Origin: Candidatus Sulfotelmatobacter sp.
GTDB taxonomy: Bacteria; Acidobacteriota; Terriglobia; Terriglobales; Acidobacteriaceae
Assembly: GCA_017883425.1 (NCBI GenBank)
Contig: JADGNP010000001.1
Location: forward strand, 2,514-66,513
Direction: 5' to 3'
Length of the DNA stretch: 64,000 nucleotides
The translations under genes and the position numbers were made by a program. The first letter of the stretch is position 1. The number at the start of each line of letters is the position of its first letter. A model generated the notes under the pieces. It did no database searches and had not been told where the DNA came from. It saw nothing but the letters and a program-made list of their open reading frames with translations. Of this stretch, positions 34,366-51,913 are shown in pieces.

Positions 34366-35472
34366 ATGGATATCCGAGAGATTGCCCGGAGGGCGAAAGT
34401 TTCCATTGCCACCGTGTCTAGAGCGATTAACCGTGTTCCCACGGTCGATCCTCAGCTCGCCAAGCGAGTATGGAAAGTGGTCGACGAGTTGGGTTATTAC
34501 CCCAATACCCAGGCTCGCGCGTTGGTGCTCGGGCGAAGCCGCATCTTCGGACTGATTGTGTCGGAAATCACGAATCCGTTTTTCCCGGAGATTGTTCAGA
34601 CCTTCGAGGATTTAGCGGTTGAGAACAACTACGAGATTCTGTTGACTTCCACCGTGCATGACCCCAAACGCATGGAGTCATCGGTCCGCAGGATGATTGA
34701 ACGCCGCGTGGATGGAGTCGCGATTCTAACCTTCGGCATGGAGGAGTCCCTGATTGAACACCTTCGCGACCGGAAGGTTCCGCTCGTATTCGTTGATGTT
34801 GGGCCCGATGTCCCGGGCATTGCAAATATCCGGATCAACTATCTGAACGGCATTCGACAGGCAGTCCAGCACTTGGCTGCGCTGCGTCATAGACGAATAG
34901 CATTTATTGCGGGTCCACAGTACTTGAAGTCCGCCGGTGCGCGGCGAGAGGCTTTCGAGGACTCCATGAAGGAAATCGGACTTTCTCCAGACTTAATCGT
35001 AATCGGGGACCACAGGATGGAGGGGGGAATGAATGCCCTTCTCGAACTCAATAAATTGAATGATCCGCCGACTGCGGTCCTCTGCTCCAACGACATGACT
35101 GCCATTGGAGTCCTGCGGGAAGCATACGAACAAAACATCAATATACCGGATGACCTCTCGGTTGTCGGCTTCGACGATATCCATTTGGCCGAGTTCACTA
35201 TTCCGCCATTGACGACGGTTCAGATGTCTCAGCACGATTTGGCCAAGATTGCGTTCAACGCCCTATTGCAAGAAGTCGAGTACGGATCTTCCTCGCGCGA
35301 ACGGCACAACTATGAACTCGTGACGAGTCTAGTCCTCCGCCGATCCACGGCCTTGGCTCCGATTAGAAAATCGGCGGCTACGCTGCCCAAGACAAACCGC
35401 ATTGCGAAATCACGCAGGACATCTATAGTTGATTTTGGGCCAGCCAATCATAACTCTCGCGTCACAGACTGA
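34366..35472 (+). CDS. LacI-family transcriptional regulator (paralogue 2)
   Basis: HTH MDIREIARRAKVSIATVSRAINR. About 70% identical by eye to the regulator at 7768..8808, with a near-identical recognition helix. Has an extra ~40-aa C-terminal tail. Confidence 0.9.
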   Translation: MDIREIARRAKVSIATVSRAINRVPTVDPQLAKRVWKVVDELGYYPNTQARALVLGRSRIFGLIVSEITNPFFPEIVQTFEDLAVENNYEILLTSTVHDPKRMESSVRRMIERRVDGVAILTFGMEESLIEHLRDRKVPLVFVDVGPDVPGIANIRINYLNGIRQAVQHLAALRHRRIAFIAGPQYLKSAGARREAFEDSMKEIGLSPDLIVIGDHRMEGGMNALLELNKLNDPPTAVLCSNDMTAIGVLREAYEQNINIPDDLSVVGFDDIHLAEFTIPPLTTVQMSQHDLAKIAFNALLQEVEYGSSSRERHNYELVTSLVLRRSTALAPIRKSAATLPKTNRIAKSRRTSIVDFGPANHNSRVTD

Positions 35473-35581
35473 TTTTCAAAAGGGGTCCGTCTTGGATTCC
35501 CCGGCCAGAGATCCATTGCGCACTTCGCCTTGGGGTGAGAGCATAACTGGAATATATTCTTCGATAGTCGGGCCCCGATCC

Positions 35582-38500
35582 ATGAACATCACCCTCAGGC
35601 TTGCATCCGCGTGCGTGATTTCGCTGCTACTAGTCATCTGTAGCCCCGCAGAAGCGTCTCTCTCGACGGAAAACCCCGGACAGGCCAAGGAAAACGATTC
35701 AGCCCTCTCTGTGACGCAGATTCAGGCGTCGCTTCAGCGTGAGCCTGGCAATTCAAAGCTTTACATCAAACTGGGGCAAGCTTACTGGAACAATGGCGAC
35801 TACCAACCAGCCTTCGATGCCTTCAGGCAGGCTGTGAAACTCGCTCCAGCTTCGGCTGAGGCCCATAACTGGTTGGGCGCATTTCTGATGGGACGTGGCA
35901 ACCTGCCCGACTCAATTTCGGAACTGCGCAAGGCCGTTTCTCTCGATCCCAAGTATGCGCGAGGGTACACGAATCTGGGTTCTGCTCTCGCGAAGAGCGG
36001 CGACCTTGGCGACGCGGTAACCGCGTTTCAAAAGGCCTTGGCCCTTGAGCCAAATAGTTGGGCAGCACACCTCAACCTTGGGCTCGCGTTGCGTGAGAAT
36101 GGAGATGCCGCGGGCGCGCTTGTCCACCTGCGCCGAGTGGCACAAGCGCAACCGAAAAATCCGACGGTGCAATGCGAACTCGGCCAGGCGCTTCGCCAGA
36201 ACGGTGACTTGTCGGCCGCAGCGGCCGCCTTCGAGCGTGCACTGGAGATGGATCCGGAGACGCGCGAAGCCTATTACGGGCTCGGCTTCACGTTAAAGCA
36301 GCAAGCTGCGGCGGCACGTAAAGCTCCGCCGGCCTCTCTTGCAACGAATCAATATCAAAAGGGAGCGCAAGATGACTTGGCCAAAGGTGATTTAAGCTCG
36401 GCCAAGGAACAACTCCTGAAAGCCCTTGCGGCCGATGAAAACGACGGCGATGCTCACAATCTCCTCGGATACATCTTGGGTCAGCAAGGAGACACGGCCT
36501 CCGCACTACCGCATCTGGAACGTGCTGTCGCGCTTCGACCCGACTCTGCGGACGTTCACTACAACTATGGCGCAGCCCTGTGGTATGGCGGTGCGAAACA
36601 GAAGGCCATCTCGGAACTTAAAACGAGTATTCGCCTCGACCCTTCGGCCGCTGCCAGTTACGCGCTGCTCGGAATGGCGCAACGCGACGAAGGTGATTTA
36701 GCTGATTCGAAAGTGAATCTTGAGCGGGCGCTCGCCCTCTCACCGACAACAGCAGCTAGCTTCATTGATCTTGGAATAGTTTTCCTCAAGCAGGCCCAAC
36801 TTCAAAGAGCCCTGGCGCAGTTTGAAGCTGGGCTGAATGCCAACTCAGCCGTTCCCACTCCCGATTGGGATGGTGCAATCACCGCATTGCGTGAAGCCAT
36901 TTCACAAGGTCCCGACCTCCCAGAACTACACAATGTGCTCGGACTCTTGCTCGGTCGCAGAGGCACCGATAGCAACGAAGTTCTGACCGAGCTCCGTCAA
37001 GCTCTGCGTTTGCGGCCGCACTATGCCGAGGCTCACAACAACATGGGCCTGGTCTTGGCCCAAAACGGTGATGACGAGAAAGCGACCGTTGAATTTCGCG
37101 AGGCTGTCCGGATTCGTCCGGACTACGCTGACGCTCATGCGAACCTGGGCGCCGTGCTCATGCTCGCGGACGTGGAAGAAGCTATTGGCGAGTTAGAGAA
37201 GGCGACATCTCTCGATCCAACATTGATAAAAGCCCAATTCAACCTTGCCGAAGCGTACGGCAACAGTTCGAGCCACGGCGCTGCGAAACAGATCGAGCAA
37301 TTGCGAAAGATCATTTCGATCGCACCGGACTTTGCCCGGGCACATCTTGCATTGGGCAAGGCCCTGCTGCACGACGCGAAGGTCAGCGATGCGGTCGCTG
37401 AACTTCGAGACGCAACGCGCCTGGACCCGACAAGCGGCGAAGCGCACTACCAATTGGGCCTGGCCTTAGCTAGAAGCGGTCAGCAAGAGGAAGCTGCAGC
37501 AGAAGTGAAGAAAGGACGGGAACTCTCCTCCGCCGACGAGCGCAACCAGAATGCGGAGCTTGATATCTCGGAAGGCCAGGCAGCTCTTCAAAAAGCCGAA
37601 CTGCGGGAAGCGGAAGCGAAGTTCCGTCATGCCATCAAACTGCTGCCAAACTCTCCGGTCGCACAGCATTTCTTGGGCATGGTATTGGAAAAAGAAGGGG
37701 ACACCGAGGGCGCCGTCACCGCCTATCAGAAAGCGGTGGAATTGAATCCGAGCGACTTGAGCGCCAGGCAGAGCGTGGGTAGGCTGAAGCCACCTGATGC
37801 GCCTGCGCAAACTTCCAGTTCCACCGACCTGGCCGGCGGGATGAGCGAAGGCAAAATCGCTGACGATGATCCCGCAAAGATTTCCGAGTTCGAGAACTAT
37901 ATTCGTGAGAGTCGATATAAGGACGTAGAGCCATTGCTCACATCCTACGTGAAAGAACATCCCAACTCTTCCCGTGGTTGGTACGCTCTCGGCTACAGCC
38001 AGTTTGCTCAGAAAAGGATCGGGGACTCCATCAAATCACTGTCCCAATCGCTCAGCTTGAATGTTAGAAACGCCGACGCACACAAAATCCTTGGGCGCGA
38101 CCTTATGGTCATCGGGCGTTTTGACGCCGCACAAACGGAATTTGAACGGGCGATTCGCTACGCTCCGAAATCGAGTGAAAGCTACTACGATCTGGGCAAA
38201 CTGTATTCGCTCCAGGACAATTGGCTGGCCGCGCGCAAGCAATTCGAGGAGGCCATTCGACTCGATCCGGGATATATCGAAGCAATTGATTCCCTGGGCT
38301 TTACTCAAGAGGCGTTGAGCGATGATGCCGCTGCCCTTCAGACCTATCAGAAGGCAATCGCTCTCAATGAGGAGCGCCACGGCAAATTCGTTTCTGCTCA
38401 CGTGAATTTGAGCGCCTACTACAACCGCACTGGCAATCCGACAAAGGCCCTCGAGTACGCGGAGAAAGCGCTTGAACTTGATCCTAAGTCCGATTCCGCC

Positions 38501-38770
38501 TGGTTTCAAAAGGCACGAGCCGAGGAGCGTCAGGGGCAACTTCAGGCTGCCGCCGATTCGCTGAATCACGCCATCTCCTTGAACCAACGCTCGTCTTCGT
38601 ATTACTACGTCCTCTCCGGAATCTATCGACGGCTCGGCAATCTCCCGGAGAGCAAGAAGGCACTCGAGTCGTTCACGCGCCTGGATCAAGAGAACAACGA
38701 ATTGGAAAAGATGCGACACAACATGTCGAAGAGCAGAGCTGCGCCACATCCCGGAGGAGACCGTGAGTAG
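35582..38770 (+). CDS. Very large secreted TPR protein (~1060 aa, about 25 TPR units)
   Basis: The ATG at 35582 gives the signal peptide MNITLRLASACVISLLLVICSPAEA; the track start at 35429 adds 51 non-signal residues. The unit ...A..Y..LG..L...G....A...F..AL.L.P... repeats throughout. Confidence 0.85.
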   Translation: MNITLRLASACVISLLLVICSPAEASLSTENPGQAKENDSALSVTQIQASLQREPGNSKLYIKLGQAYWNNGDYQPAFDAFRQAVKLAPASAEAHNWLGAFLMGRGNLPDSISELRKAVSLDPKYARGYTNLGSALAKSGDLGDAVTAFQKALALEPNSWAAHLNLGLALRENGDAAGALVHLRRVAQAQPKNPTVQCELGQALRQNGDLSAAAAAFERALEMDPETREAYYGLGFTLKQQAAAARKAPPASLATNQYQKGAQDDLAKGDLSSAKEQLLKALAADENDGDAHNLLGYILGQQGDTASALPHLERAVALRPDSADVHYNYGAALWYGGAKQKAISELKTSIRLDPSAAASYALLGMAQRDEGDLADSKVNLERALALSPTTAASFIDLGIVFLKQAQLQRALAQFEAGLNANSAVPTPDWDGAITALREAISQGPDLPELHNVLGLLLGRRGTDSNEVLTELRQALRLRPHYAEAHNNMGLVLAQNGDDEKATVEFREAVRIRPDYADAHANLGAVLMLADVEEAIGELEKATSLDPTLIKAQFNLAEAYGNSSSHGAAKQIEQLRKIISIAPDFARAHLALGKALLHDAKVSDAVAELRDATRLDPTSGEAHYQLGLALARSGQQEEAAAEVKKGRELSSADERNQNAELDISEGQAALQKAELREAEAKFRHAIKLLPNSPVAQHFLGMVLEKEGDTEGAVTAYQKAVELNPSDLSARQSVGRLKPPDAPAQTSSSTDLAGGMSEGKIADDDPAKISEFENYIRESRYKDVEPLLTSYVKEHPNSSRGWYALGYSQFAQKRIGDSIKSLSQSLSLNVRNADAHKILGRDLMVIGRFDAAQTEFERAIRYAPKSSESYYDLGKLYSLQDNWLAARKQFEEAIRLDPGYIEAIDSLGFTQEALSDDAAALQTYQKAIALNEERHGKFVSAHVNLSAYYNRTGNPTKALEYAEKALELDPKSDSAWFQKARAEERQGQLQAAADSLNHAISLNQRSSSYYYVLSGIYRRLGNLPESKKALESFTRLDQENNELEKMRHNMSKSRAAPHPGGDRE

Positions 38771-40484
38771 TTGCTCGCGGATCGAGTGGCCGCGTAAATC
38801 CTTCTGGATACTGGGTTGGGCGGGTGCGGTGATATCGGCCTCACTGATGACCGTCGCTCAAACGGCTCCCGAAGTGCAGTTTGCCGACATCACGGCTCAG
38901 AGCCACGTCGATTTCACTCAGGAAAACTCCGCCACTTCGAATAAATACCTGATCGAAACCATGGGTGGCGGTGTGGCCCTCTTCGACTACGACAATGACG
39001 GCCGACTGGACATTTTCTTCACCAATGGCGCGCTGCTTTCCGATCCAATGCCCGATGGCAAGATGCCCGACAAATCGCACAAGGAGTTCTGGAATCGCCT
39101 CTACCACCAGAATGCAGACGGTACCTTTACCGAAGTGACGGAACATGCCGGTCTTACCGGAATGCCCCAGGGGTACTACAGCATGGGCGTGGCAGTTGGC
39201 GACTATGACAACGATGGTTTTGAAGATCTGTACGTCACCGGATACGGCGGAAACATTTTGTATCACAACAACCACGATGGAACCTTTACCGATGTCACCG
39301 AGAAAGCCGGGGTCAGAGGGGGGGGCTGGAGTGCGAGCGCGGGGTTTTTTGATTATGACAATGACGGAAGACTTGACCTACTCGTCACGCGCTACATTGA
39401 CTGGACACTTAAGACGAATCGCTATTGTGGAGAAAGACCCCCGAATGGCGTTCGTGCCTACTGCCACCCGGATAATTACGACGGCTTGACGAATATCCTG
39501 TATCACAACAACGGAGATGGCACATTCACCGATGTTTCTCAGAAGGCAGGAATCGCCAATCCGCACGGCAAGGGGCTGGGCGTTTCTTTTGCCGACTACG
39601 ATGGCGATGGCTTCACTGATGTTTTTGTCGCAAATGACTCCGTGCAATGCTTTCTCTACCACAACAACGGCAACGGCACGTTCAGCGAAGTCGGTCTGCT
39701 CGCCGGCGTCGGTTACAACGAGGATGGCAAAACTTTCGCGGGCATGGGGATCGACTTCAGCGACTACGACAACGATGGCCTGCCTGATATCGTGGTTACC
39801 GATCTCTCCAATGAACGCTACATGCTATTTCGTAATGAGGGGACGGGCACGTTTCGCGATGTGACCAACACCTCCGGCATCGGGAGCGCCACTCTGGCTT
39901 TCTCTGGTTGGAGCACCCACCTTTTCGATTATGACAACGACGGCTGGAAAGACCTGTTCGTCGCGCAGTCTCATGTCATGGACACGATCGAGAAGACTTC
40001 CCCCAACCTTCGGTATCTGCAACCGCCTTTGTTGCTCCGCAATGTGTCCGGCCATTTTTCGCGGGTCGTCGCTGGAGAGGTCTTCCGGAAAGACTGGGCA
40101 GGGCGCGGCGCCGCTTTTGGTGACATCGACAACGATGGCGACACGGATATTGTCGTCAGCAATCTTGGCCAGAAAGCGTACTTACTTCGGAATGACGGCG
40201 GAAACAGGAATAACTGGATCGGCATTCAGCCCGTGGGCACTAAATCCAATCGCGATGGCATCGGAGCACGAATCAAGGTCGTGTCCGCTTCCGGCCTGAC
40301 GCAGTACTTTACGGTGAACACGGCGGTCGGCTATCTTTCCGCCAGTGATAAACGCGTGATTGCCGGTCTCGGCAGGGACTCCAGCGCCAAACTGATCGAA
40401 ATTCGATGGCCCTCGGGAATCGTGCAAAAATTTGAGGACGTCAAAGCCCGCCAATATCTCAAGGCGGTCGAACCCACCCAATGA
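38763..40484 (+). CDS. FG-GAP 7-bladed propeller + ASPIC/UnbV protein (CRTAC1-like), Sec signal; paralogue 2, subtype II
   Basis: 573 aa. GTG start with GGAGG 5 nt upstream, overlapping the TPR stop by 8 nt. Seven loops: FDYDNDGRLD, GDYDNDGFED, FDYDNDGRLD, ADYDGDGFTD, SDYDNDGLPD, FDYDNDGWKD, GDIDNDGDTD. C-terminal NWIGIQPVGTKSNRDGIGARI. Confidence 0.85.
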   Translation: MSSCSRIEWPRKSFWILGWAGAVISASLMTVAQTAPEVQFADITAQSHVDFTQENSATSNKYLIETMGGGVALFDYDNDGRLDIFFTNGALLSDPMPDGKMPDKSHKEFWNRLYHQNADGTFTEVTEHAGLTGMPQGYYSMGVAVGDYDNDGFEDLYVTGYGGNILYHNNHDGTFTDVTEKAGVRGGGWSASAGFFDYDNDGRLDLLVTRYIDWTLKTNRYCGERPPNGVRAYCHPDNYDGLTNILYHNNGDGTFTDVSQKAGIANPHGKGLGVSFADYDGDGFTDVFVANDSVQCFLYHNNGNGTFSEVGLLAGVGYNEDGKTFAGMGIDFSDYDNDGLPDIVVTDLSNERYMLFRNEGTGTFRDVTNTSGIGSATLAFSGWSTHLFDYDNDGWKDLFVAQSHVMDTIEKTSPNLRYLQPPLLLRNVSGHFSRVVAGEVFRKDWAGRGAAFGDIDNDGDTDIVVSNLGQKAYLLRNDGGNRNNWIGIQPVGTKSNRDGIGARIKVVSASGLTQYFTVNTAVGYLSASDKRVIAGLGRDSSAKLIEIRWPSGIVQKFEDVKARQYLKAVEPTQ

Positions 40485-42244
40485 TCACTCGCCGGGAATT
40501 GATGTTCAGAATTGCAACTGCGGCGGGCTCTACCCTGATTCTTCCATCCCGATTCGCCCTTGCTCAGGGAATTTCGTCCCGCGGCATGAAGCCGCAACCG
40601 CGCGGCAAGCCATCCGGTCGTCCATTTTTTGCGCACTTCGTTGACGTTGCAAAAGAGGCTGGATTGAAGGAGTCCATCGTCTACGGTGGTCTCGAAACAA
40701 AAAACTACATCGTCGAGGTAGTTGGAGCTGGGGTTGCATTCCTTGACTATGACAATGATGGCTGGATGGATCTACTGGTGCTGAACGGCACTCGACTTGA
40801 AGGCGATCCGCCGGGCGTCACCAATCGCCTGTACAAGAACAATCGAGATGGTACGTTCACCGACGTGACCGCAAAAGCAGGGCTGATACGGGCTGGCTGG
40901 GCTTCGGGCGTGACCGTTGCCGATTATGACAACGACGGTTTTGACGATCTCTTTATCACCTACTACGGCCACAACGTGCTTTACCACAACAATGGCAACG
41001 GCACGTTCTCTGATGTGACGAACAAGGCTGGGCTCTCGCAGAGCGCTGTGCGTTACGGTTCGGGCTGCACTTGGGTGGACTACGACCGCGACGGACACCT
41101 CGATCTCTTTGTTGCTAACTACCTCAGCACTACTCTCGATAAGTTGCCAAAGCCGGGAACGAACCCTGACTGCACCTGGAAAGGTGTTGCGGTGAACTGC
41201 GGTCCCCGCGGCCTGCCTACCGGCTTCGTGCAGCTTTTTCATAACAACGGCAACGGTACTTTTACAGAAGTCAGTAAACAGAGTGGCGTGGCGTCCGCAT
41301 CCGGTTCCTATCCCATGACGTGTGTGGCAGCCGACTACGATAATGACGGCTGGCCTGATATTTACGTCGCGTGCGATTCCACCCCTAGCTGGATGTTTCG
41401 CAATCAGCACGATGGCACTTTTCGCGAAGAGGCCCTCGAACGCGGCGTCGCGCTCAGCGAAGATGGACTAGTGCAAGCCGGCATGGGCGCAGCAGTGGGG
41501 GATATTGATCTAGACGGGAATCTCGACATTTTCAAGACTAACTTTGCCGACGATACGAACATTCTCTATCACAACGACGGCAAGGGCAACTTCGACGACG
41601 TCACCATTCATTCCGGCTTAGGCGTTGAAACACGCTACGTCGGATGGGGTGCAGGAATCGTTGATCTGGACAACGACGGCTTCCCCGATCTCTTTGTGGC
41701 GACCGGAAGTGTTTATCCCGAAGTTGAAAAGAAAGTGCCGGCCTACCCGTTTCGGACTCCACGCCTGGTCTTTCGCAATCTGGGCGACGGCAGATTCGAG
41801 GAGTTAATCGAAGAAGCTGGCCCGGGCGTCTCCGATGTGCACGCCAGCCGCGGGTGCGCTTTCGGGGACTTCGACAATGATGGCGACATCGACGTCCTCA
41901 TCTGGAACATGAACGAGCCTCCTTCTTTGCTGCGAAATGATCTGTCCGGGAGAGGCCACTGGCTGAAAGTCTTCCTCATTGGAGTCCGCAGCAATCGCAG
42001 CGCGATTGGCGCGCGAGTGACTGCCCGGTACGGCAACCGTCTGCAATCGCAGGAGGTTAGCGCGCAATCCAGCTTCTATTCTGTGAACGACCGCCGCTTA
42101 CACTTCGGGCTTGGAAACGAAACAGTGGCGCATCTGAGCATTCGCTGGACAAACGGCACCACAGAGACTGTTCCAAACGTTGCGGCCGACCAACTCGTCG
42201 TCATTCGCGAAGCGGCGGGGATCATTCACAAGCAAAAGTTCTGA
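40481..42244 (+). CDS. FG-GAP 7-bladed propeller + ASPIC/UnbV protein (CRTAC1-like), Tat signal; paralogue 3, subtype I
   Basis: 587 aa. ATGA start/stop overlap with paralogue 2. Leader MITRRELMFRIATAAG. About 70% identical by eye to paralogue 1 (17506..19269). Seven DxDxDG loops. Confidence 0.85.
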   Translation: MITRRELMFRIATAAGSTLILPSRFALAQGISSRGMKPQPRGKPSGRPFFAHFVDVAKEAGLKESIVYGGLETKNYIVEVVGAGVAFLDYDNDGWMDLLVLNGTRLEGDPPGVTNRLYKNNRDGTFTDVTAKAGLIRAGWASGVTVADYDNDGFDDLFITYYGHNVLYHNNGNGTFSDVTNKAGLSQSAVRYGSGCTWVDYDRDGHLDLFVANYLSTTLDKLPKPGTNPDCTWKGVAVNCGPRGLPTGFVQLFHNNGNGTFTEVSKQSGVASASGSYPMTCVAADYDNDGWPDIYVACDSTPSWMFRNQHDGTFREEALERGVALSEDGLVQAGMGAAVGDIDLDGNLDIFKTNFADDTNILYHNDGKGNFDDVTIHSGLGVETRYVGWGAGIVDLDNDGFPDLFVATGSVYPEVEKKVPAYPFRTPRLVFRNLGDGRFEELIEEAGPGVSDVHASRGCAFGDFDNDGDIDVLIWNMNEPPSLLRNDLSGRGHWLKVFLIGVRSNRSAIGARVTARYGNRLQSQEVSAQSSFYSVNDRRLHFGLGNETVAHLSIRWTNGTTETVPNVAADQLVVIREAAGIIHKQKF

Positions 42245-42296
42245 GCGGCGCGGATCAGCCTCATCATCCCCCAGAAAAGCTGCTAGCCTCTAGTCA

Positions 42297-42308
42297 GAAA
42301 ACGATTTC
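42297..42308. promoter_or_regulatory. LacI-type operator candidate GAAAACGATTTC (extended palindrome CAGAAAACGATTTCTG, 42295..42310)
   Basis: 16-nt inverted repeat with one mismatched pair, in the 468-nt region upstream of TBDR-2. Confidence 0.4.
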
Positions 42309-42463
42309 TGCACGCTCGCAGATAGGGTGTAGGGCGTGGCTGGACGCTGCAGACGCCTACCAGGCGCGCGCCAAGCGAGCACAAATTCAGAACCCGATCC
42401 CCTGCAAGCAAGAATACTCGCAACAGAATGCTTTTTGCAGATGGAGGCTGGCCTGCAAACGGG

Positions 42464-42475
42464 AAAAACGATTTA
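42464..42475. promoter_or_regulatory. Second operator-like site AAAAACGATTTA upstream of TBDR-2
   Basis: Shares the AAAACGATTT core with 42298..42307. Confidence 0.3.
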
Positions 42476-42595: not shown

Positions 42596-42614
42596 CTAGT
42601 ACAAAAGAATTAGC

Positions 42615-42643: not shown

Positions 42644-42712
42644 ATGCATCCATCTGAGAAAAGGTTTTCTCGACATCGCGTGAGGTTTCGAACTTCAACC
42701 GGGAGGCGCGAG

Positions 42713-45700: not shown

Positions 45701-46420
45701 GAGCGACGTATGAGTGCGGGTTTGCAGCTGAAAGTCTCCTACACCTACTCTCGGCTTATGAACAATGGCTCGGAGACGGGATTAGGGTCCGGGGGGCCTC
45801 CGGTCCAGAATCCCAGCGATATGCGGGACCTGTACAGCGTCAGTTCCGACGACGTGCCCCACATCTTCTCGTTCGGTTGGGTTTACCATCTGCCGTTCGG
45901 CAAGGGCCGGCCCCTTGCAAGTAATGCGTCAGGTCTCTTGAACAAGCTTATCGGTGACTGGCAGATCTCGGGTATTCAGAGTTACTCGTCTGGCAGACCG
46001 CTGTCGATCACGATGCCGAATGACATGGGGGGATACCTGTTCAATTACGCAAAGTTCCCGAATAAAGACGGCAGCGGCCGCTCCGGGAAGTTCAATAATC
46101 CCTACACCGACTCTTACTTGAACCAGGGCGGTTGGTCCGATCCCGGTGCACTCGCGTTCGGTAACGCGCCGAGAATGGATGCGAATGTACGCGGATTCAA
46201 GTACTTCAACGAGGACATTTCAATCTACAAAGACACCTTCTTCGGCGAGGACAAATACGTGAGGTTTGAAGCCGATGCAGGCAACGCCCTGAACCGCGTC
46301 TTCTTCTGCCCGGTGGATCAGTTCTGGATTCCCAACAACGGTAACGGTAACTTTGGGAAGACCGGCAGCCAGTGCAACATCCCGAGGCGAATCCAGTTCG
46401 GGTTGCAATTGTTCTTCTAG
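42713..46420 (+). CDS. TonB-dependent outer-membrane receptor-like barrel with N-terminal CarboxypepD_reg domain (TBDR-2)
   Basis: ~1235 aa from the ATG at 42713, with RBS GGGAGG at 42701..42706. Signal MKRRPFSAISLLLALVWFSNVQSFGQ. Beta-sandwich GVVTDSSGAAIPDARVTITDEQTSVKTIVGTNSAGNYSTPPLILGTYRV. C-terminal IQFGLQLFF. Confidence 0.85.
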   Translation: MKRRPFSAISLLLALVWFSNVQSFGQFADRAIITGVVTDSSGAAIPDARVTITDEQTSVKTIVGTNSAGNYSTPPLILGTYRVDIEKQGFRIFSRTGNSLTGGQTVRVDATLGVGATTESVQVEAATTELVNTENATVQHTIGEEYYRDLPAVMGADIRLAESLLQLQPGYVPMQPNGDAIFRGSQFTSRMNGGQTMATENWFDGAAFGYAEGHQQTQESSIPYPSVREMTVVQNTFSAQYGHTSGGFITYTTKSGTNKLHGNVYDFYTNNKFDASNYFVGPLLKAGGLGTTLPLGQNNWGFALGGHVPKLKQTFWFFNLDGLDYHSTVNTGFVNTLPTTAQRAGNFSDPQILTGAQAVDSNNNPIFDALDRPVFQGEIYNPATTRLVGGVPVRDGYGFDPTTGLPIAGQANIIPSSDPLWSPLATAVIPNIPALDRDQLRANGFGGSSDDNDKINVRTWLFRFDHNFNDKFSISNTYYENMRPRTAHCGGPQGCNTIHNGQTDSAANDTYIGQGFYQRVTNHFEHLQMNWIIKPNLFNHTTLAYDRWMMLGNQLSGGVGWNQKLGLGLPDAPVFNNAGFPQLNFNGSVGYTHFGTPWASGGADINNRYQFLDDVAWTVGKHTIKAGVEYRYMTFPQTGWAVNTGGNFNFADNETAGYNKAGAILNAGKTGNEFASFILGQVDSANFSVPFRYMPKMKYGSFWGNDDIKVTKNLNLTLGLRFDWQGGLSEEYNRFSTFDPTVPNPVGVPGATIFNSSKANGKSSWNVGPRFGFAYSFNPKTVIRGGYGMYYAGVQADSWDPYPVDGYQTNPVAPNTTNGLAPAFYFNGTGACPSTLTQITTVSVSCGWPAGSITLPPQLRADVANGGNPVGVDPRTYTMPRYQNWSLSFQRQLSRNMGIDIAYVGNHGTRLIDGRSSAGVYDNMNPASVLSLGAPVLNTTFTDGVCNGDCGGVAAPYPTFSGTVAQALRSWPQYQQINWRFFPFGNSHYNALQVAFERRMSAGLQLKVSYTYSRLMNNGSETGLGSGGPPVQNPSDMRDLYSVSSDDVPHIFSFGWVYHLPFGKGRPLASNASGLLNKLIGDWQISGIQSYSSGRPLSITMPNDMGGYLFNYAKFPNKDGSGRSGKFNNPYTDSYLNQGGWSDPGALAFGNAPRMDANVRGFKYFNEDISIYKDTFFGEDKYVRFEADAGNALNRVFFCPVDQFWIPNNGNGNFGKTGSQCNIPRRIQFGLQLFF

Positions 46421-46439
46421 CCCTCTCCAGAAGGCTACA

Positions 46440-46475
46440 GGGATGGTCCAACACGGACCATCCCGTTATTTTTCT
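46440..46475 (+). terminator. Rho-independent terminator after TBDR-2
   Basis: GGGATGGTCC-AACAC-GGACCATCCC (perfect 10-bp stem) followed by GTTATTTTTCTTCT. Starts 20 nt after the stop. Confidence 0.8.
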
Positions 46476-46534
46476 TCTGCCATTTTTGCGGCAGAGTAGA
46501 AAGAGGCTAAGGAAGTGCACGTACCCCAGGGAGG

Positions 46535-48433
46535 TTACTTTCCTAGCTTCTCTCGCCGTATGATGCCGTGGCCTTCCTGCAGCACCAGCAGTTGATTGGC
46601 ATCAACATTCTTGAAGGACTCGACCAGGCCTAGCGGCCAACGCACTTCGACCAAGTCCGCCAGTTTGGCCTGACCCAGGCCGAAATGCAGGCGCAAATCG
46701 TTCTGCGAGATGTAACTCGATCCGCTCATGACTTCGTTGATCTGGGAGTGCCGCCCAGTCAATACGCGCACGCGGGCACCGATCGCGCTTCGGTTCGACT
46801 TGGTTCCAACGCATTTCACCTTCAGCCAGTTGTTCTTTGTCGAACAGTCATTTCGCAGCAGCGATGGCGGCTCATTCATGTTGATGATTACCATGTCGAC
46901 GTCTCCATCGTTATCGAAGTCCCCGAACGCTGCTCCCCGGCTGGGGCGCGGCTCTGTCAGCACTGCGCCGCTATCGGCCGTCACGTCAACAAAGCGGCCG
47001 TTCCCAAGATTGCGGTAGACGATCTTTCGCTGCTTGAAGGTGAGGTGCAGTTTCTTGCTATCAACTTCAGGAAACACGTGACCGTTCGACATGAATATGT
47101 CAGGCCAGCCATCGTTGTCGAAATCACAGAGGCCCACGCCCCATCCCAGGTATCTGGTATTTCCGCCCAGACCGCCCTGCAAGACCGCGTCGTAGAAGGT
47201 TCCATCTCCGTTGTTGTGGTATAGATTGGCTGTTTGATCAGAGTAGTTCGTCTTAACGATATCCAGCCACCCGTCACAGTCATAATCGCCGACGGCCACT
47301 CCCATCCCGCCCTGCATTCCGCCGTTCTCGTTCACCGCGCAACCGATTTCCCGTCCAACCTCCTCGAAGGTTCCGTTCCCCTTGTTGTGATAGAAACGGC
47401 TGGGGACCGAGTCACAAGCTACGTAAATGTCCGGCCAGCCATCGTTGTCGAAATCTGCAGCGGAGACACCCAGACCATAGGAACCGGTCGGAATCCATTG
47501 GTCGCTCACAAAGAAAGGGTCTGAAGGACCGCGAGGTACCGCAATTCCCGACTGCAGAGACACATCCTCGAACGTTCCGTCGCCGCGATTGCGATAGAGG
47601 ATGTTCGTTCCGCCGCCCATTCCCTGCGGCCCGCAGCCGACCGAGAGTCCAAAATAACGGCAGTAGGCATTCTTCCCGGCGAGCGGCGTAGTCTTCAGGT
47701 CGAAATTGACGTAGTTCGCGACGAAGAGATCGAGGTGGCCGTCGCGATTGTAGTCTACAAAGCAGCAGCCGGTGTTCCATCGCGGATGCGCGTCCTTCTG
47801 CACAAGACCTGCTTTTTCGGTGACATCGGTGAAGGTCCCGTCCCCGTTGTTGTGATACAGGACAATGCCACCCCAATAGGTCACAACCAGATCGTCGCAA
47901 CCGTCGTTGTCGTAGTCTCCAATGCAACAACCTTGGCCCCAGCCGGACCTGGCCAGGCCTGCTTTCTGGGTAACGTCGGTAAACGTGCCATCGCGATTGT
48001 TGTGAAACAGGAAATTGGTCGGCGGACGCGATGCCGAGATTCCCTCAAGCCTGGTCCCGTTGACCATGAAAATGTCCAGCCAGCCGTCATTGTCGTAATC
48101 GAAAAGAGCAACGCCACAGCCCGTTTCCTCAAGGATGTACTCTTTGCGCTCAACTCCGCCAAAGACGTTAATTGCTGCCGCGAGACCGGATTCTTTGGCA
48201 ACGTCTTTGAATGAGAAGCTTGCGACTGCGGATGGGCTCGTTGTCGCCCTTCGGCTAGTGGGGGCTGTCGTATGCTTCTGCAGTGCCTGTAAAGCCGGCA
48301 GTCCAGTGAGCAGTGAGGAAACAGGCAATATGGAGCCTAGTCGGCCCATGGCACCAAGGAAATCACGGCGGGAAAAGTGAGTCGCTGCCGATAAGTTGCT
48401 GGGCCCGTGAAGGTCGAGAATACGCCGGCTCAT
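46535..48433 (-). CDS. FG-GAP 7-bladed propeller + ASPIC/UnbV protein (CRTAC1-like), Tat signal; paralogue 4, subtype I
   Basis: The ATG at 48433 gives MSRRILDL...FSRRDFLGAMGRLGS; the track start at 48517 overlaps the TPR gene. Seven loops from FDYDNDGWLD to GDFDNDGDVD. C-terminal NWLKVKCVGTKSNRSAIGARV. Confidence 0.85.
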   Translation of the reverse strand: MSRRILDLHGPSNLSAATHFSRRDFLGAMGRLGSILPVSSLLTGLPALQALQKHTTAPTSRRATTSPSAVASFSFKDVAKESGLAAAINVFGGVERKEYILEETGCGVALFDYDNDGWLDIFMVNGTRLEGISASRPPTNFLFHNNRDGTFTDVTQKAGLARSGWGQGCCIGDYDNDGCDDLVVTYWGGIVLYHNNGDGTFTDVTEKAGLVQKDAHPRWNTGCCFVDYNRDGHLDLFVANYVNFDLKTTPLAGKNAYCRYFGLSVGCGPQGMGGGTNILYRNRGDGTFEDVSLQSGIAVPRGPSDPFFVSDQWIPTGSYGLGVSAADFDNDGWPDIYVACDSVPSRFYHNKGNGTFEEVGREIGCAVNENGGMQGGMGVAVGDYDCDGWLDIVKTNYSDQTANLYHNNGDGTFYDAVLQGGLGGNTRYLGWGVGLCDFDNDGWPDIFMSNGHVFPEVDSKKLHLTFKQRKIVYRNLGNGRFVDVTADSGAVLTEPRPSRGAAFGDFDNDGDVDMVIINMNEPPSLLRNDCSTKNNWLKVKCVGTKSNRSAIGARVRVLTGRHSQINEVMSGSSYISQNDLRLHFGLGQAKLADLVEVRWPLGLVESFKNVDANQLLVLQEGHGIIRREKLGK

Positions 48434-48440
48434 TTTAGGT

Positions 48441-49985
48441 TCACTCAGGCAGCAACAGGCGCAAACGCACGTCCTTTTGCGCACGTTGCGCCGCTTCCAG
48501 CTTTCGTGACTCCGCAAACTCGCTCTCTGACTCGGCAGACTTGCCCAGGCGTCGAAGCAGAAGCCCTAGCTGGTAATGCGCTTCCACCGAATCCGGATCG
48601 AGAGAGACTGCGCGCTCGAGGTTCTGTTGGGCGTCCTCGTACTGGTGCACCCTCAGCAGTATGCCACCCAGTTTCACGTAGGACGGCGCATGCTTGGGAT
48701 TGCTCTTGAGTAACTCGCGGAAGACCGGGATCGCACGATCATCGTCGCCAATTGCGTCGTAAGTCAGCCCCAGATAGTAGGAAGCCGCTACCTGATTCGG
48801 TTGAGCCGCAAGGCTCTGCTTGAGCAAAGCTTCCGCTTCGCTGTACTTCCCTTGCAGGTAATATACGGCGCCGGTTGCATACATCAGGACGGCATCATGC
48901 GGGTGCTTCTGGAGCAGTCGCTGGAAAAGCGCTAGAGCGTCCGGCAACTGGCCCTTGGCAACTTTGGCGGAGCCTAAAACGTAGACGTACGAGTCATTGT
49001 CCGGCTCTCGTTCTACAGCCTTTGTCAGCGCAGGCAGCGCATCGTCGACAAGATTTCTCTCTAGACAGACTTTGCCAAATTCGAAGAGAACCTCCGGATC
49101 TTCAGGAGCTAGCTTTTTGGCGGCAACCAGATATGCCAGAGCTTTCTCACTGTTGTCTTGTCGATCGGCAACTTGCGCAAGAGTCTGGTAACACGCGACG
49201 CAGTCGGGAGCCAGCGACAACGCAAGTTGCGAATTCTTCTCCGCCTCGTCGAGAAGCCCTAGAGCCAGAAAAGCATTCCCCAATTTGAGGGCTAGAGGCG
49301 GTGACGGATGAGCACCGAGTCGCGCTGCTTCGTCCTGGGCCACTTTCGTGGCCTCAGTTTTCATCCCGTACACGAGCAGCGTGGTGCCGAAATCCAATGA
49401 CGCTTGATCCTCAGGTTGTGGCAACTTTTGCCAGTGCGCAAACAGGTCCGCTAACTCTTGCTTCTTTCCGAGCCCACCATAGTCGGAGGCAAGGACAACT
49501 ATCGCCTCATCAGATTCCAGTAGCTGAGGCATGATTGGCACAGCCAGATCGAGGGACTGCTGGAAATTGCGCCGGGAAGCCTCCAGTTTGAACAGGTCGA
49601 AGCGAGCATCGAAATTGCTTGGATCGATTTTCAGCACATCGTAAAAGCATTTCGCCGCCAAATCTGGCTTACCGCCGAACGCGTAGGCATTCCCCAACGT
49701 TGTGCGAGCGCCCACTAGCTTTGGATTCAGGGCGAGAGCTTGAACCAGAAACTTGGTACTCTCATCGGTTTTCCCCTGCTGCAACCGAATCGTTCCGAGC
49801 ATGGCCAGCGCTAAGGCGCGAGTCGATGGACTCTGCATGGCTTTACGGGCCTCGGCCTCGGCTTGCACCGTATCGCCGTTGCTCAATAGCTGAGCAGAGG
49901 TCGCAATGTGATTGGTCTGAGCACATGCGGCGACTGCAAGGAAACACAGGACGAGGAACACGCGCCAGCAGTCTCTTGCCCGCAT
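48441..49985 (-). CDS. Secreted TPR protein (TPR-3)
   Basis: The ATG at 49985 gives the signal MRARDCWRVFLVLCFLAVAACAQ; the track start at 50132 adds 49 non-signal residues. The stop lies 7 nt before the propeller-4 ATG. Confidence 0.8.
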   Translation of the reverse strand: MRARDCWRVFLVLCFLAVAACAQTNHIATSAQLLSNGDTVQAEAEARKAMQSPSTRALALAMLGTIRLQQGKTDESTKFLVQALALNPKLVGARTTLGNAYAFGGKPDLAAKCFYDVLKIDPSNFDARFDLFKLEASRRNFQQSLDLAVPIMPQLLESDEAIVVLASDYGGLGKKQELADLFAHWQKLPQPEDQASLDFGTTLLVYGMKTEATKVAQDEAARLGAHPSPPLALKLGNAFLALGLLDEAEKNSQLALSLAPDCVACYQTLAQVADRQDNSEKALAYLVAAKKLAPEDPEVLFEFGKVCLERNLVDDALPALTKAVEREPDNDSYVYVLGSAKVAKGQLPDALALFQRLLQKHPHDAVLMYATGAVYYLQGKYSEAEALLKQSLAAQPNQVAASYYLGLTYDAIGDDDRAIPVFRELLKSNPKHAPSYVKLGGILLRVHQYEDAQQNLERAVSLDPDSVEAHYQLGLLLRRLGKSAESESEFAESRKLEAAQRAQKDVRLRLLLPE

Positions 49986-50188
49986 AGAGTGGGTGCCCGG
50001 GTGGATACGAGGCCCGGTCAGAACTTCGTCTTTTATAGCATTGCCGCTGTACCCGCGCAATGCGTAAACCCGCGAAAATACTGGGGGGATTGCTCTTGTG
50101 ACCCCGCGCTCCACAGGTGTAGATTCATCCACAGGACAATCGGTTCTACTCTTGTCGGTTGCGGCTTTTCGGGGGCAGACGCAGCTTC

Positions 50189-51913
50189 ATGATCCAGGGA
50201 AAAAGTGGGTATTTTGGCACACGCCGTGGCTTCCTGAGACGCATCGGTGCAGTACTAGCCGCTTCTGCTCTTCCCGGTTTGCCCAGGCTTTGGCCAGTAG
50301 CCGTATCACCCCCTGAATTCCCCTTTGAACTCGTACCTCCAGAAGTGAACGGGATAACCTGGACCCACCGCAACGGCCGCTCGCCCGAGATGTACTTGCC
50401 TGAGACGGTTGGAGCGGGTTGCGGATTCATTGATTATGACAACGACGGCTGGATGGACCTCTATCTGGTCAACAGCGGGAAGTGCGATTTCCTGGATCCG
50501 AATCCGCCCCTTCGCAACGCACTCTACCACAACAACCGTGATGGCACCTTCACGGATGTAACCGAGAAAACGGGAGTTCCGGGAAGCGGCTATGGAATGG
50601 GTGTTGCGGTGGGCGACTACGACGGCGACGGCTTCCCCGACCTTCTCGTCACGCAATACAACGGTGTCATCCTCTACCACAACAATGGGAACGGCACGTT
50701 TACTGACGTGACCCGTAAAGCCGGGCTTCCCGCCACTGGATGGGCCTCGAGCGCAGTGTGGTTCGACTACGACAACGATGGCAAGCTTGACCTTTTTATC
50801 TGCCGGTTCGTGGACTTCGACAAGTCCAAGAACAAATTCTGCGGCAACCAGGAGACCGGAGACCGTTACTACTGCATCCCTCGCGTTTACGATCCCATGC
50901 CGAGTTGGCTGTTCCACAACAATGGCGACGGCACCTTCACCGACGTCAGCCAGGAGTCCGGGATTGCGAAGTCATTGGGCAAAGCCTGGGGCGTGGTCGC
51001 CTGCGACATTAACAATGATGGCCGGATGGACCTCTTCGTCGCGAACGATACGGTCGCGAACTTTCTATTTCTCAACCGGGGTAATGGCAAATTCGATGAG
51101 ATCGGACTTCAGGCAAATGTCGGCTACAGCGCCGAAGGCCATGCTCGCTCCGGCATGGGCGTGGACGCCGCGGATTATGACCAGGATGGGTGGGTAGACC
51201 TGTTCGTCACCAACGTGGACCGGGAGATGTATTCGCTGTATCACAACAATCACGATGAGAGTTTCGACGATATGGCCATTCCTAATGGGATCGGGCGAGT
51301 GACCCGGCTGATGAGCGGGTGGGGAGTTAAGTACTTCGACTACGACAACGACGGCAATCTCGACCTGTTCCTTGCCAATGGCCATCCGGACGACAAAATT
51401 GAAGAGCACTCGACGGAAGTGAAGTACTGCGAACCTATGCTTCTCTTTCGCGGCACTGGTAAACGATTCGAAGACATTTCTGGATCCAGCGGCCCAGTCT
51501 TTACAAAGCCCTATGCGTCGCGTGGCATGGCAGTTGGTGATTTCAATAACGATGGAGCCTTGGACATTCTCGTCGCGGTTAACAATGGCGCCCCTCTGTT
51601 GGTTAAGAACAATGCGGGGAGACACAATCATTGGCTGGGCGTGAAACTGGTAGCGAAGCAAGCGAACCCTGATGCTATCGGAGCCGTGATCACTTGGCAG
51701 GCTGGAGACTTGAAACGATCGATCTTCAAGACAGGCGGGGGGAGCTATCTTGCCTCGCACGATCCACGCCTCATTCTCGGCATCGGCGCTCGTCCGAAGA
51801 TCGACTGGGTGGAAATCAAATGGCCTATGCCTAGTGGACGGGTAGAACGATTCGCCGACCTCCCGATCGACAAATACATAACCTTATCGGAAGGCCGCGG
51901 AACAAAGGTTTAA
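50189..51913 (+). CDS. FG-GAP 7-bladed propeller + ASPIC/UnbV protein (CRTAC1-like), Tat signal; paralogue 5, subtype II
   Basis: The ATG at 50189 gives [30 protein letters not shown]. Seven loops from [10 protein letters not shown] to [10 protein letters not shown]. Shares the subtype-II insert [16 protein letters not shown] (compare RYCGERPPNGVRAYCHP in paralogue 2). Confidence 0.85.

Follow-up and report, generated by a model that had tools for sequence, protein, structure and literature searches.

Blanvillain et al. are said to have described, in 2007, carbohydrate utilization (CUT) loci with TonB-dependent transporters (TBDTs) in Xanthomonas, Caulobacter, and other bacteria outside the Bacteroidota. 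The acidobacterial DNA analyzed here, a stretch of 64,000 nucleotides that we call the window, resembles such loci in placing a TBDT beside a LacI repressor, glycoside hydrolases, and sugar catabolism genes, in having no SusD, and in carrying operator palindromes across a candidate regulon; TBDTs, regulators, degradative enzymes, an MFS transporter, and a shared operator are all found in it. It departs from CUT loci in that its TBDTs are of the predicted Oar subclass and the inner-membrane MFS transporter (25770-27008) is not adjacent, lying about 8 to 15 kb from the TBDTs.

Oar of Myxococcus xanthus has been implicated in export of the PopC protease, and its gene adjoins those of a Ton system of its own (PMC6434023). 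The window TBDTs share with it an N-terminal CarboxypepD_reg domain followed by a TonB-box-like motif, a probable plug, and a barrel; however, unlike Oar, they carry sugar-repressor operators and sit among glycoside hydrolase genes. No ExbB, ExbD, or TonB gene was seen within the window.

Gene content of the two window modules

Every gene named in the first-pass annotation of the block at 34321-51913 was present, and each domain was backed by Pfam profiles: the LacI repressor, a TPR protein of about 1,060 residues, coupled propellers, and a barrel protein of 1,235 residues followed by a terminator-like hairpin. The fifth propeller also placed in this block is not there; the block holds four, and the fifth (propE) belongs to a second module. 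The features of the block are as follows.

34321..35472 (likely start 34366), plus strand: LacI-family repressor LacI_1 (Pfam LacI HTH and Peripla_BP_1/3/4)
35582..38770 (ORF from 35429), plus strand: TPR_1, predicted exported giant TPR protein, 1062 aa from M52 (Pfam TPR families along its entire length)
38763..40484, plus strand: propA, CRTAC1-type seven-bladed FG-GAP propeller with UnbV_ASPIC (Pfam FG-GAP_3, 4e-61; UnbV_ASPIC, 5e-17)
40481..42244, plus strand: propB, CRTAC1-type propeller with UnbV_ASPIC (Pfam; AF2 model; Foldseek)
42295..42310: operator-like palindrome CAGAAAACGATTTCTG, upstream of TBDT_1
42656..42671: operator-like palindrome GAGAAAAGGTTTTCTC, 43 nt 5' of the TBDT_1 start codon (ATG)
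42713..46420 (ORF from 42644; 42713 is the likely start), plus strand: TBDT_1, predicted Oar-subclass TBDT, 1235 aa (Pfam)
46440..46474, plus strand: intrinsic-terminator-like hairpin 3' of TBDT_1 (hairpin at 46440-46464; 10-bp stem, 7 GC pairs, T-rich tail)
46535..48433, minus strand: propC, CRTAC1-type propeller with UnbV_ASPIC (Pfam)
48441..49985, minus strand: TPR_2, 514 aa from M50 (Pfam TPR families; the JGI ortholog is also 514 aa)
50189..51913, plus strand: propD, CRTAC1-type propeller with UnbV_ASPIC, divergent from TPR_2 (Pfam)

TPR_1 has an N-terminal Sec-type signal peptide, MNITLRLASACVISLLLVICSPAEA, and the JGI gene call for its ortholog is 1,055 aa long. The start of propA overlaps the TPR_1 stop by 8 nt, propA and propB overlap by 4 nt, and TPR_2 and propC are separated by the 7-nt gap originally reported. 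The TPR proteins as a group have Sec signal peptides; that of TPR_2 contains VAAC, the sole lipobox-like sequence among the TPR proteins and propellers. The block is kept entire from LacI to propD in two other loci (L081 and L082), where the upstream flank differs, a sign that the block may be mobile; there, the LacI_1 ortholog occupies the equivalent position and is preceded at 77 nt by an operator-like site, and a conserved counterpart of the 42656 site precedes the orthologous TBDT by 58 nt. Pfam detected no SusD family member among window ORFs of at least 250 aa. This lack is no anomaly, because the genome is acidobacterial and SusD is a feature of the Bacteroidota.

The second module (12255-20829) lies outside this block and has the order TPR-propeller-TBDT-TPR.

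12255..13739, minus strand: TPR_4, 494 aa, predicted exported, last gene of the module (Pfam)
13938..17318, minus strand: TBDT_2, second predicted Oar-subclass TBDT (Pfam, weak Plug match)
17352: operator-like site AGAAAACGTTTACT, upstream of TBDT_2
17506..19269, minus strand: propE, fifth propeller of the window (Pfam)
19319: operator-like site AGTAAAGGTTTACT, upstream of propE
19336..20829, minus strand: TPR_3, 497 aa, predicted exported, first gene of the module (Pfam)

TPR_3 and TPR_4 are 52.6% identical and the window propellers are mutually 40 to 46% identical; identity between TBDT_1 and TBDT_2 is only 25 to 28%. The gene order TPR, propeller, TBDT recurs in both modules, which sequence comparison indicates are anciently diverged.

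Both transporters are assigned by their domain profiles to the Oar subclass, their architecture being an N-terminal extension of the CarboxypepD_reg type, a TonB-box-like motif, a probable plug, and a barrel. The N-terminal CarboxypepD_reg domain (PF13620) matched with E values of 1.2e-15 (TBDT_1) and 1.9e-18 (TBDT_2), and OMP_b-brl_4 matched over its full length (1-838/838) with E values of 1e-160 and 4e-102, respectively; TBDT_1 also matched TonB_dep_Rec_b-barrel (E of 4e-8) and carries a signal peptide, and the C-terminal residue of both proteins is F. Directly 3' of the extension is a TonB-box-like stretch, recognized as a motif only (TESVQVEAATT in TBDT_1 and TESVVVTAEAP in TBDT_2), and a 37-sequence profile (A4) has the TonB-box consensus ExVxVxxxAP. 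The HMM searches proposed in the first-pass annotation confirmed the TPR, FG-GAP, UnbV_ASPIC, CarboxypepD_reg, and barrel domains; in both paralogs, Plug matched where expected but, at 13.6 and 14.2 bits, under the 23.9 cutoff. Profile A4 matches carboxypeptidase D domains in the PDB as well as the plug region of YncD (6v81) and PqqU (9c4o) (E of 1e-5). A divergent plug is probably present.

As had been claimed, each propeller, in all five cases, contains exactly seven D-x-[DN]-x-[DN]-G (DxDxDG) motifs and a C-terminal UnbV_ASPIC domain (PF07593; E of 1e-13 to 1e-22), with FG-GAP_3 E values of 1e-56 to 1e-64. The AF2 model of propB (pLDDT, 80.6; pTM, 0.85) has strands sufficient for seven blades, and its best Foldseek match was murine CRTAC1 (9etn; E of 1.7e-29; TM of 0.68/0.72 over 584 columns); phmmer also matched CRTAC1 by sequence (E of 3e-16). 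Seven-bladed GlcNAc-binding fungal lectins came next (E of about 1e-10 to 1e-11), and integrin alpha was also among the best structural relatives. The modeled propeller is thus of the CRTAC1 fold, with seven predicted Ca2+ loops.

Tat-like motifs were seen by eye in four of the five propellers (propB, TRRELM; propC, SRRDFL; propD, TRRGFL; and propE); the signal of propA is Sec-like. Such motifs occurred in 32/114 homologous ORFs compared with 29/329 other ORFs. Pfam TAT_signal gave no score on the propellers with Tat-like motifs but recognized the GH51 and GH127 proteins close by, whose Tat signals fit a periplasmic location shared with the propellers. From the signal peptides, we infer that the propellers and TPR proteins reside in the periplasm.

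A candidate operator in a local sugar regulon

In addition to its TBDTs, the window encodes two LacI proteins, GH31, GH39, GH43, two GH51 and two GH127 proteins, and AraA. The flanking GH51 noted previously is therefore present, but the accompanying "GH5" gene (ORF 53874-55127) has just a weak GH10-like Pfam match. Both LacI genes encode HTH_LacI plus a periplasmic-binding-protein-like sensor (Pfam). Palindromes resembling AGTAAACGTTTACT, with a central CG, occur at 11 sites in the window compared with 0.85 expected, all within promoters, and a variant at the TBDT promoters, AGAAAACGTTTTCT, has 5 matches compared with 0.26 expected. Predicted repressor domains and promoter palindromes together are the features of a LacI-family regulon.

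The candidate operator is common to GH43, GH51, GH127, and arabinose catabolism genes, TBDT_1, TBDT_2, and propE; the window scan found none at the promoters of TPR_1-propA-propB, TPR_2-propC, and propD. Since the same operator stands at GH43, GH51, GH127, and L-arabinose catabolism genes, the cargo in the window probably consists of arabinose-containing plant glycan fragments. The shared operator noted at first is borne out in the window, but the glycan link is local and not general. Similar palindromes were found upstream of cluster TBDTs in seven other species, and divergent TBDT/operator/propeller promoters are present in loci L049 and L053.

Association in other genomes and possible roles

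Neighborhood statistics, as the first-pass annotation had suggested, were obtained for 74 propeller loci from 74 other, independent genomes, comparing near genes with positions at least five genes away in the same loci, a conservative control. A TPR gene lay within two genes of the propeller in 58% of the loci (OR, 9.1; p = 1.7e-12), a TBDT within three genes in 45% (OR, 2.7; p = 0.005), and further propeller paralogs within two genes in 41% (OR, 3.0). The three families are therefore clustered beyond chance: TPR and propeller genes form a tight pair and are each other's preferred neighbors across the Acidobacteriota, and the TBDT, though often present, is an optional partner. A second, independent sample based on proper gene calls agreed, with TPR and/or TBDT adjacency at 5/6 places. 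LacI, listed in the block at first, accounted for 1/260 near genes and is no general partner of the propellers.

Furthermore, single polypeptides join TPR and propeller domains, with either domain first; of 10 long family representatives, 8 have one or the other architecture, and more fusion architectures occur in loci L045, L023, and L004. A model of a natural fusion had a pTM of 0.72, a score that does not establish the interface.

We postulate, with a probability of about 0.4, that an exported TPR-propeller complex assists TBDT uptake as an accessory that binds ligand or provides a scaffold. The block would then be a LacI-repressed, TBDT-based locus of the CUT type in a Terriglobia-class acidobacterium near Ca. 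Sulfotelmatobacter, where each TPR protein and its propeller or propellers would assemble into a complex located in the periplasm or beneath the outer membrane. The Ca2+-loaded propeller may serve as a lectin-like ligand binder that accepts the oligosaccharide from the transporter, and the TPR solenoid may be the scaffold that keeps it close to the transporter and TonB machinery or to periplasmic glycosidases. Across genomes, the pair could be a generic, specificity-diversified accessory for many substrates. Speaking against an accessory role are the 55% of loci with no TBDT inside three genes, the 20% without any partner, and the operator scan, whose matches at transport-module genes were confined to the TBDTs and propE.

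It is also conceivable, although somewhat unlikely, that TPR proteins and propellers together make up an independent envelope module (e.g., a scaffold for matrix, adhesion, protein-quality, or redox functions) unrelated to TBDT transport, its proximity to TBDT and glycoside hydrolase genes reflecting only the high density of expanded acidobacterial families. The TBDT enrichment is modest, and many propellers are solitary or accompanied by a TPR gene only; however, that enrichment is significant against a conservative control, and the TPR, propeller, TBDT order is repeated in two window modules that appear anciently diverged. The family is enormous (152,403 representative clusters of CRTAC1/ASPIC-UnbV proteins at 50% identity) and varied in context: some members are fused to AhpC/TSA-redoxin domains, FGE-sulfatase and Laminin_G_3 adjoin propellers in other lineages, and CRTAC1-family genes are also found within hydrazine-synthase-homolog clusters (PMC12758564). 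The redoxin fusions and hydrazine-synthase-homolog clusters suggest that the family also serves nonglycan contexts. Likewise, the flanks of such clusters elsewhere are mixed (ROK, CN-hydrolase, S9/M19 peptidases, response regulators, and redox genes), with CAZymes making up only about 10% of flanking genes, which argues that the pair is not glycan specific. A module independent of transport is harder to reconcile with the operator immediately upstream of propE as well as TBDT_2 and with the divergent promoters of L049 and L053.

The lyase or hydrolase activity first suggested for the propellers is unsupported; their nearest structural relatives, CRTAC1, the sugar-binding fungal lectins, and integrin alpha, are noncatalytic binders. 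We therefore consider it quite unlikely that they are unrecognized carbohydrate-active enzymes (lyase, hydrolase, or dehydratase) that act on imported oligosaccharides in the periplasm with the TPR protein as a scaffold. Several divergent paralogs per locus, akin to the diversification of glycoside hydrolase families, Tat-like export paralleling that of GH51 and GH127, and invariant residues outside the repeats (E79, a Cys pair, R432, R457, and W389 among others) would suit an enzyme, and aldos-2-ulose dehydratase (4a7z) and the PL11 rhamnogalacturonan lyase YesX (2zuy) were among the lower-ranked Foldseek matches; however, these matches are weak (TM of 0.3 to 0.48; rmsd of 12 to 20 Å), no Pfam or NCBIfam family assigns the propellers an activity, no catalytic motif was identified in them, and propeller contexts are often noncarbohydrate.

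We regard as very improbable the idea that the Oar-class TBDT works outward, delivering periplasmic TPR-propeller proteins to the cell surface to capture substrate as analogues of SusD or surface glycan-binding proteins: although the Oar architecture of the window TBDTs, the extracellular location of animal CRTAC1, the lipobox-like signal of TPR_2, and the direct adjacency of propeller and TBDT genes in many loci would fit it, a requirement for export is known for a single TBDT, whose cargo is unrelated, sugar operators of the LacI type at TBDT promoters suit import better, and the adjoining Tat-signal glycosidases imply that imported sugar is processed in the periplasm.

Broadening the accessory reading, TPR-CRTAC1 complexes might constitute a general accessory apparatus of Oar-class TBDTs in the Acidobacteriota and other non-Bacteroidota phyla, an analogue of SusD and surface glycan-binding proteins for Ca2+-dependent, specificity-diversified substrate capture and hand-off, perhaps delivered to the surface by the transporter itself. 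We think this unlikely; if true, a family that exceeds 150,000 sequence clusters would gain a role.

Acidobacteriota are among the commonest soil bacteria, and their genomes are rich in Oar-class TBDTs. The pairing and fusion with TPR proteins, together with the frequent sugar-regulated TBDT neighbors, offer a testable entry into plant-carbon capture by these organisms. The window is a good test case: its two modules have diverged, its operator is defined, and arabinose-containing glycans are a plausible substrate class. Its study would also yield a bacterial model of the CRTAC1 fold.

Comparison with described systems

No published description of the TPR-propeller-TBDT arrangement was found in the literature searched. 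The four CRTAC1-type propellers and two TPR proteins of the block have no known counterpart in described CUT loci.

Like vertebrate CRTAC1 (cartilage acidic protein 1, or LOTUS; 9etn), the bacterial proteins join an FG-GAP propeller of seven blades, with Ca2+-loop motifs, to an ASPIC/UnbV beta domain at the C terminus; unlike it, they carry Tat-like or Sec signals, and identity is about 20%. Animal CRTAC1 acts through protein-protein binding in the extracellular matrix and has a C-terminal EGF-like region that is absent from the bacterial proteins. The fungal FG-GAP lectins PVL (2bwr), AAL2 (4tqj), and PAL (5mb4) share the integrin-like seven-bladed propeller and bind sugars at interblade sites, but the match covers the propeller part only (TMq of about 0.35) at 17 to 20% identity, and the lectins have no ASPIC domain. 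UnbV, or enediyne biosynthesis protein E4, is the source of the UnbV_ASPIC name and the label that JGI gives to the window orthologs; the window contains neither an enediyne polyketide synthase gene nor any other biosynthetic gene, and the label is an annotation transfer, not a function.

The window resembles the polysaccharide utilization loci of the Bacteroidota in that a glycan-regulated TBDT is clustered with glycosidases and with exported, apparently noncatalytic accessory proteins that occur as divergent paralogs. It differs in phylum, in having no SusC/SusD pair, and in its accessories, which are long canonical TPR solenoids and propellers rather than SusD-fold lipoproteins.

Composition of the block and of the second module

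Gene content was checked by ORF listing and Pfam scans, and every gene that the first-pass annotation had named was present in the block that runs from the LacI regulator to propD; the Pfam domains agreed with it for the LacI, TPR, propeller and TonB-dependent transporter (TBDT) genes. Its fifth propeller, propE, exists but lies in a second module that the first-pass annotation had left out; the block itself has four.

Features of the block and of the second module
34321/34366-35472, +, LacI regulator (Pfam)
ORF from 35429, likely start M52 at 35582, TPR_1, exported TPR protein (1062 aa; Sec-type signal peptide)
38763-40484, +, propA, CRTAC1-type FG-GAP propeller, 8-nt overlap with the TPR_1 stop
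40481-42244, +, propB, propeller, 4-nt overlap with propA
42713-46420, +, TBDT_1, transporter of 1235 aa with CarboxypepD_reg and full-length OMP_b-brl_4 (E 1e-160)
46440-46474, strong terminator-like hairpin after TBDT_1
48433-46535, -, propC, propeller, 7-nt gap from TPR_2
49985-48441, -, TPR_2, exported TPR protein
50189-51913, +, propD, propeller, divergent to TPR_2
20829-12255, -, second module, in minus-strand order TPR_3, propE, TBDT_2, TPR_4 (Pfam)
17506-19269, -, propE, propeller of the second module

The window has a GC content of ~56%, and the closest relatives of its proteins are from Terriglobia-class Acidobacteriota near Candidatus Sulfotelmatobacter. Two metagenome contigs, L081 (1-20799) and L082, keep the block whole, with proteins ~91% identical; there the upstream GH31 and IlvD-type dehydratase genes are replaced by small genes for hypothetical proteins and a fragment of Transposase_20. 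Because the block is conserved in this relative despite the different upstream flank, it behaves and moves as a unit.

TBDT_1 and TBDT_2 are 25 to 28% identical and the propellers 40 to 46% identical among themselves; the only close pair is TPR_3 and TPR_4 (52.6%). Judged from their sequences, the two modules are ancient, with no recent duplication, and the gene order TPR, propeller(s), TBDT is found again in both despite the divergence. A GH39 gene at 20908 is divergent from the second module.

The D-x-[DN]-x-[DN]-G motif was counted exactly seven times in every propeller, and the C-terminal domain is UnbV_ASPIC in each, as had been claimed. The AF2 model of propB (pLDDT 80.6, pTM 0.85) has murine CRTAC1 as its best PDB match (9etn; E 1.7e-29, TM 0.68/0.72), and the propellers are bona fide members of the CRTAC1/ASPIC-UnbV family, with its fold and seven Ca2+ loops. 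This family is very large: a profile search returned 152,403 representative clusters at E <= 1e-3 and, with the stricter cutoff of E <= 1e-30, 27,168. Its members are named "CRTAC1 family protein" by NCBI and "enediyne biosynthesis protein E4" by JGI, and no NCBIfam model matches the propellers or the TBDTs.

Both TBDTs have a signal peptide, a CarboxypepD_reg N-terminal extension, a TonB-box-like motif (ESVQVEA in TBDT_1, ESVVVTA in TBDT_2), a probable plug and a large barrel ending in a C-terminal F. This is the architecture described for the Oar subclass in Myxococcus (PMC6434023), to which we assign them on that basis. The probable plug is divergent, scoring only 13.6 and 14.2 bits in Pfam, at the correct position in both paralogs; a PDB sequence search with a single TBDT gave no match, and TBDT plugs (YncD and PqqU, E 1e-5) were reached only by a 37-sequence profile.

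Twin-arginine-like motifs occur in four of the five propellers (TRRELM, SRRDFL, TRRGFL and TRRSFV) and in 32/114 homologous ORFs versus 29/329 other ORFs. The Pfam TAT_signal model gave the propeller motifs no score, whereas it scored the neighboring GH51 and GH127 proteins; the Pfam-detectable signals are on the GH51 and GH127 paralogs at 5855-7519 (-) and 10373-12235 (+). Export of folded periplasmic proteins by the Tat route appears to be common in this host, in line with the Tat-like motifs on the four propellers. The TPR proteins carry Sec signals, with a lipobox-like VAAC in TPR_2. Together, the signals suggest that the whole set is located in the periplasm or the envelope.

Several other features were observed in the window, in which no Rfam match was found. 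A repeat of ~150 nt (77% identity) occupies two long intergenic regions, at 33539-33686 and 55115-55263 (+), and both copies encode the conserved plus-strand peptide PPALTxPDxSxFVQVxxxLERKIDERLRS; the repeat may represent a small ORF, the remnant of a gene or a regulatory leader. At 1662-2830 (-), two short adjoining ORFs, of 164 and 237 aa, align to widely separated segments of DUF5695, a model of 857 positions, and are probably a disrupted or decayed gene. The region 55620-63537 (-) encodes a protein of 1496 aa whose C-terminal domain is "Glycoamylase" (PF10091), a 606-aa ABC exporter-type protein and a 449-aa PF10091 protein, which may be a beta-glucan-related set unconnected with the TPR-propeller block.

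Association of TPR proteins, propellers and transporters

Eighty loci around propA relatives were compared, one genome per species, nearly all from Acidobacteriota and one from Poribacteria; choosing them by propA similarity biased the sample to Acidobacteriota, and 74 anchored loci entered the statistics. Locus ORFs were crudely called and classified against the window proteins, the TPR queries being limited to the four TPR proteins of the window. Near genes were those within two genes, and the controls were genes at least five positions away in the same loci, a conservative choice because such positions remain within 10 kb of a propeller.

Gene classes near propellers, per gene versus control, in 74 anchored loci
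TPR within ±2 genes: 43/74 loci (58%); 21% vs 2.9%; OR 9.1; p 1.7e-12
TBDT within ±3 genes: 33/74 loci (45%); 10.4% vs 4.2%; OR 2.7; p 0.005
Further propeller within ±2 genes: 30/74 loci (41%); 13.8% vs 5.1%; OR 3.0; p 4e-4

The enrichment of all three classes in these mostly acidobacterial loci bears out the repeated association proposed by the first-pass annotation. TPR and TBDT genes occurred together in 22/74 loci, and 15/74 had no partner at all. In an independent sample of six diverse family representatives, for which genes were called by pipeline and labeled from Pfam, five of the six places had a TPR gene, a TBDT gene or both next to the propeller; some neighbors listed as unannotated there are TPR proteins. 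LacI was rejected as a conserved cluster member (1/260 near genes in the 74 loci, not significant).

The TPR-propeller linkage is also seen in natural fusions. Of the ten representatives of the family that exceed the length of a single propeller, four have the order TPR, FG-GAP, ASPIC and another four the order FG-GAP, ASPIC, TPR. The argument rests on these representatives and on loci L004 (a TPR-propeller-ASPIC fusion), L045 and L023. The proteins at L045 3318-7151 and L023 16004-19789, and one at L036, are of 1260 to 1280 aa and run FG-GAP propeller, UnbV_ASPIC, AhpC/TSA-redoxin (thioredoxin fold), TPR; AhpC/TSA-redoxin domains are fused to some propeller-family members, and such fusions are a hint that the TPR-propeller pairing may also serve in redox processes. 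Single ORFs of 1.6 to 1.7 kaa join a propeller to a giant TPR protein at L001 4813-9930 and L002 5043-9941, but were not counted, since a Tat-like signal (RRGFL) is still present inside the ORF at the junction, along with a linker of low complexity; these ORFs may reflect read-through, frameshifts in MAGs from long reads, or genes with internal initiation. The AF2 model of a natural TPR-propeller fusion, P0153, has scores (pLDDT 82.8, pTM 0.72) that establish no TPR-propeller interface.

We conclude that the TPR protein and the propeller form a tight functional pair, with the Oar-class TBDT as a frequent but optional third partner. In the literature covered by full-text searching, no description was found of the TPR/CRTAC1/TBDT association, nor of the systematic pairing of TPR proteins with propellers and its common link with Oar-class TBDTs; the only related reports are a Solibacter paralog-family paper, an Oar/PopC paper (PMC6434023) and a note on CRTAC1 and a hydrazine-synthase homolog (PMC12758564).

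Operator sites and the arabinose setting

Strict palindrome scans had missed the operator, which was found by intergenic k-mer comparison. The LacI-type palindrome AGTAAACGTTTACT has 11 sites in the window with up to three mismatches, versus 0.85 expected, all in promoter regions.

Sites matching AGTAAACGTTTACT
4685, GH43 promoter
7558, promoter of LacI_2, a second LacI-family gene
9173, aldo-keto reductase promoter
10338, GH127b promoter
17352, TBDT_2 promoter
19319, propE promoter
29214 and 29349, divergent promoter of GH127a and the IlvD-type dehydratase
42296 and 42657, TBDT_1 promoter
53634, GH51 promoter

The two sites before TBDT_1 are 16 nt long and form nearly perfect palindromes of the variant AGAAAACGTTTTCT, which has five matches versus 0.26 expected. 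The site proximal to the TBDT_1 start is kept in L081 and L082, where the LacI ortholog has its own site. Of 11 similar palindromes in the 80 loci, 7 to 8 precede a cluster TBDT gene by 34 to 215 nt, and these come from seven species. The window scan found no operator before TPR_1-propA-propB, TPR_2-propC or propD.

The remaining window genes include AraA, GH43, two GH51, two GH127, GH39, GH31, an MFS transporter and sugar-acid dehydratases, and the rest of the window is a predicted arabinose/arabinan regulon marked by this putative LacI operator. From the shared operator and the arabinose-gene setting, TBDT_1, TBDT_2 and propE are plausibly co-repressed with the arabinofuranosidases. The same two observations support, for this locus, the earlier guess of an arabinoglycan substrate.

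Proposed role and comparison with known systems

We put at about 40% the probability that the Ca2+-loaded propeller and the TPR solenoid assemble in the envelope into a complex that helps TBDT-mediated uptake. The propeller would be the ligand-binding element and the TPR protein a scaffold towards the transporter/TonB machinery or periplasmic enzymes, and specificity would come from paralog diversification.

A TPR-propeller module that is functionally independent of the TBDT is the strongest of the alternatives, albeit an unlikely one; the enrichment of TBDTs near propellers speaks against it, their absence from many loci and the contexts found elsewhere for it.

The 92 genes flanking other clusters are heterogeneous (ROK, 4; CN-hydrolase, 4; peptidase S9, 3; response regulators, 3; GH42, GH127, GH3 and DUF2961, two each), with ~10% CAZymes. 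Other propellers lie with an M19 dipeptidase, with Rieske/TPP enzymes, or with FGE-sulfatase and Laminin_G_3 proteins, and a CRTAC1-family gene lies between the subunit genes of a hydrazine-synthase homolog in non-anammox bacteria (PMC12758564). The distant loci L084, L087 and L088 have Laminin_G_3 and FGE-sulfatase-like genes around the propeller and no TBDTs; a TPR gene still adjoins the propeller in L087 and L088. The TPR-propeller pair seems to be a general-purpose exported unit, used again with many partners, which argues against a glycan-specific system.

It is less probable still that the propellers are an unrecognized enzyme family. After CRTAC1, the propB model next matches fungal lectins that have seven blades and bind GlcNAc (PVL, AAL2 and PAL; E ~1e-10), and aldos-2-ulose dehydratase and the PL11 lyase YesX appear, with integrin alpha propellers, among the weaker ones. 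Oar-like outward transport that would bring the propellers to the surface is the least probable reading. The association with TPR proteins and TBDTs now gives a testable context to a huge, functionally blank propeller family.

The idea that the TPR proteins are SusD homologues was set aside: they are canonical TPR solenoids over their full length, with no SusD family among the matches listed. The description of the locus as "SusD-less" is correct in that no SusD was found among the scanned ORFs of 250 aa or more, but this is expected rather than strange, because the locus fits the concept of the CUT loci of non-Bacteroidota and lacks the SusC/SusD pair that defines a Bacteroidota PUL.
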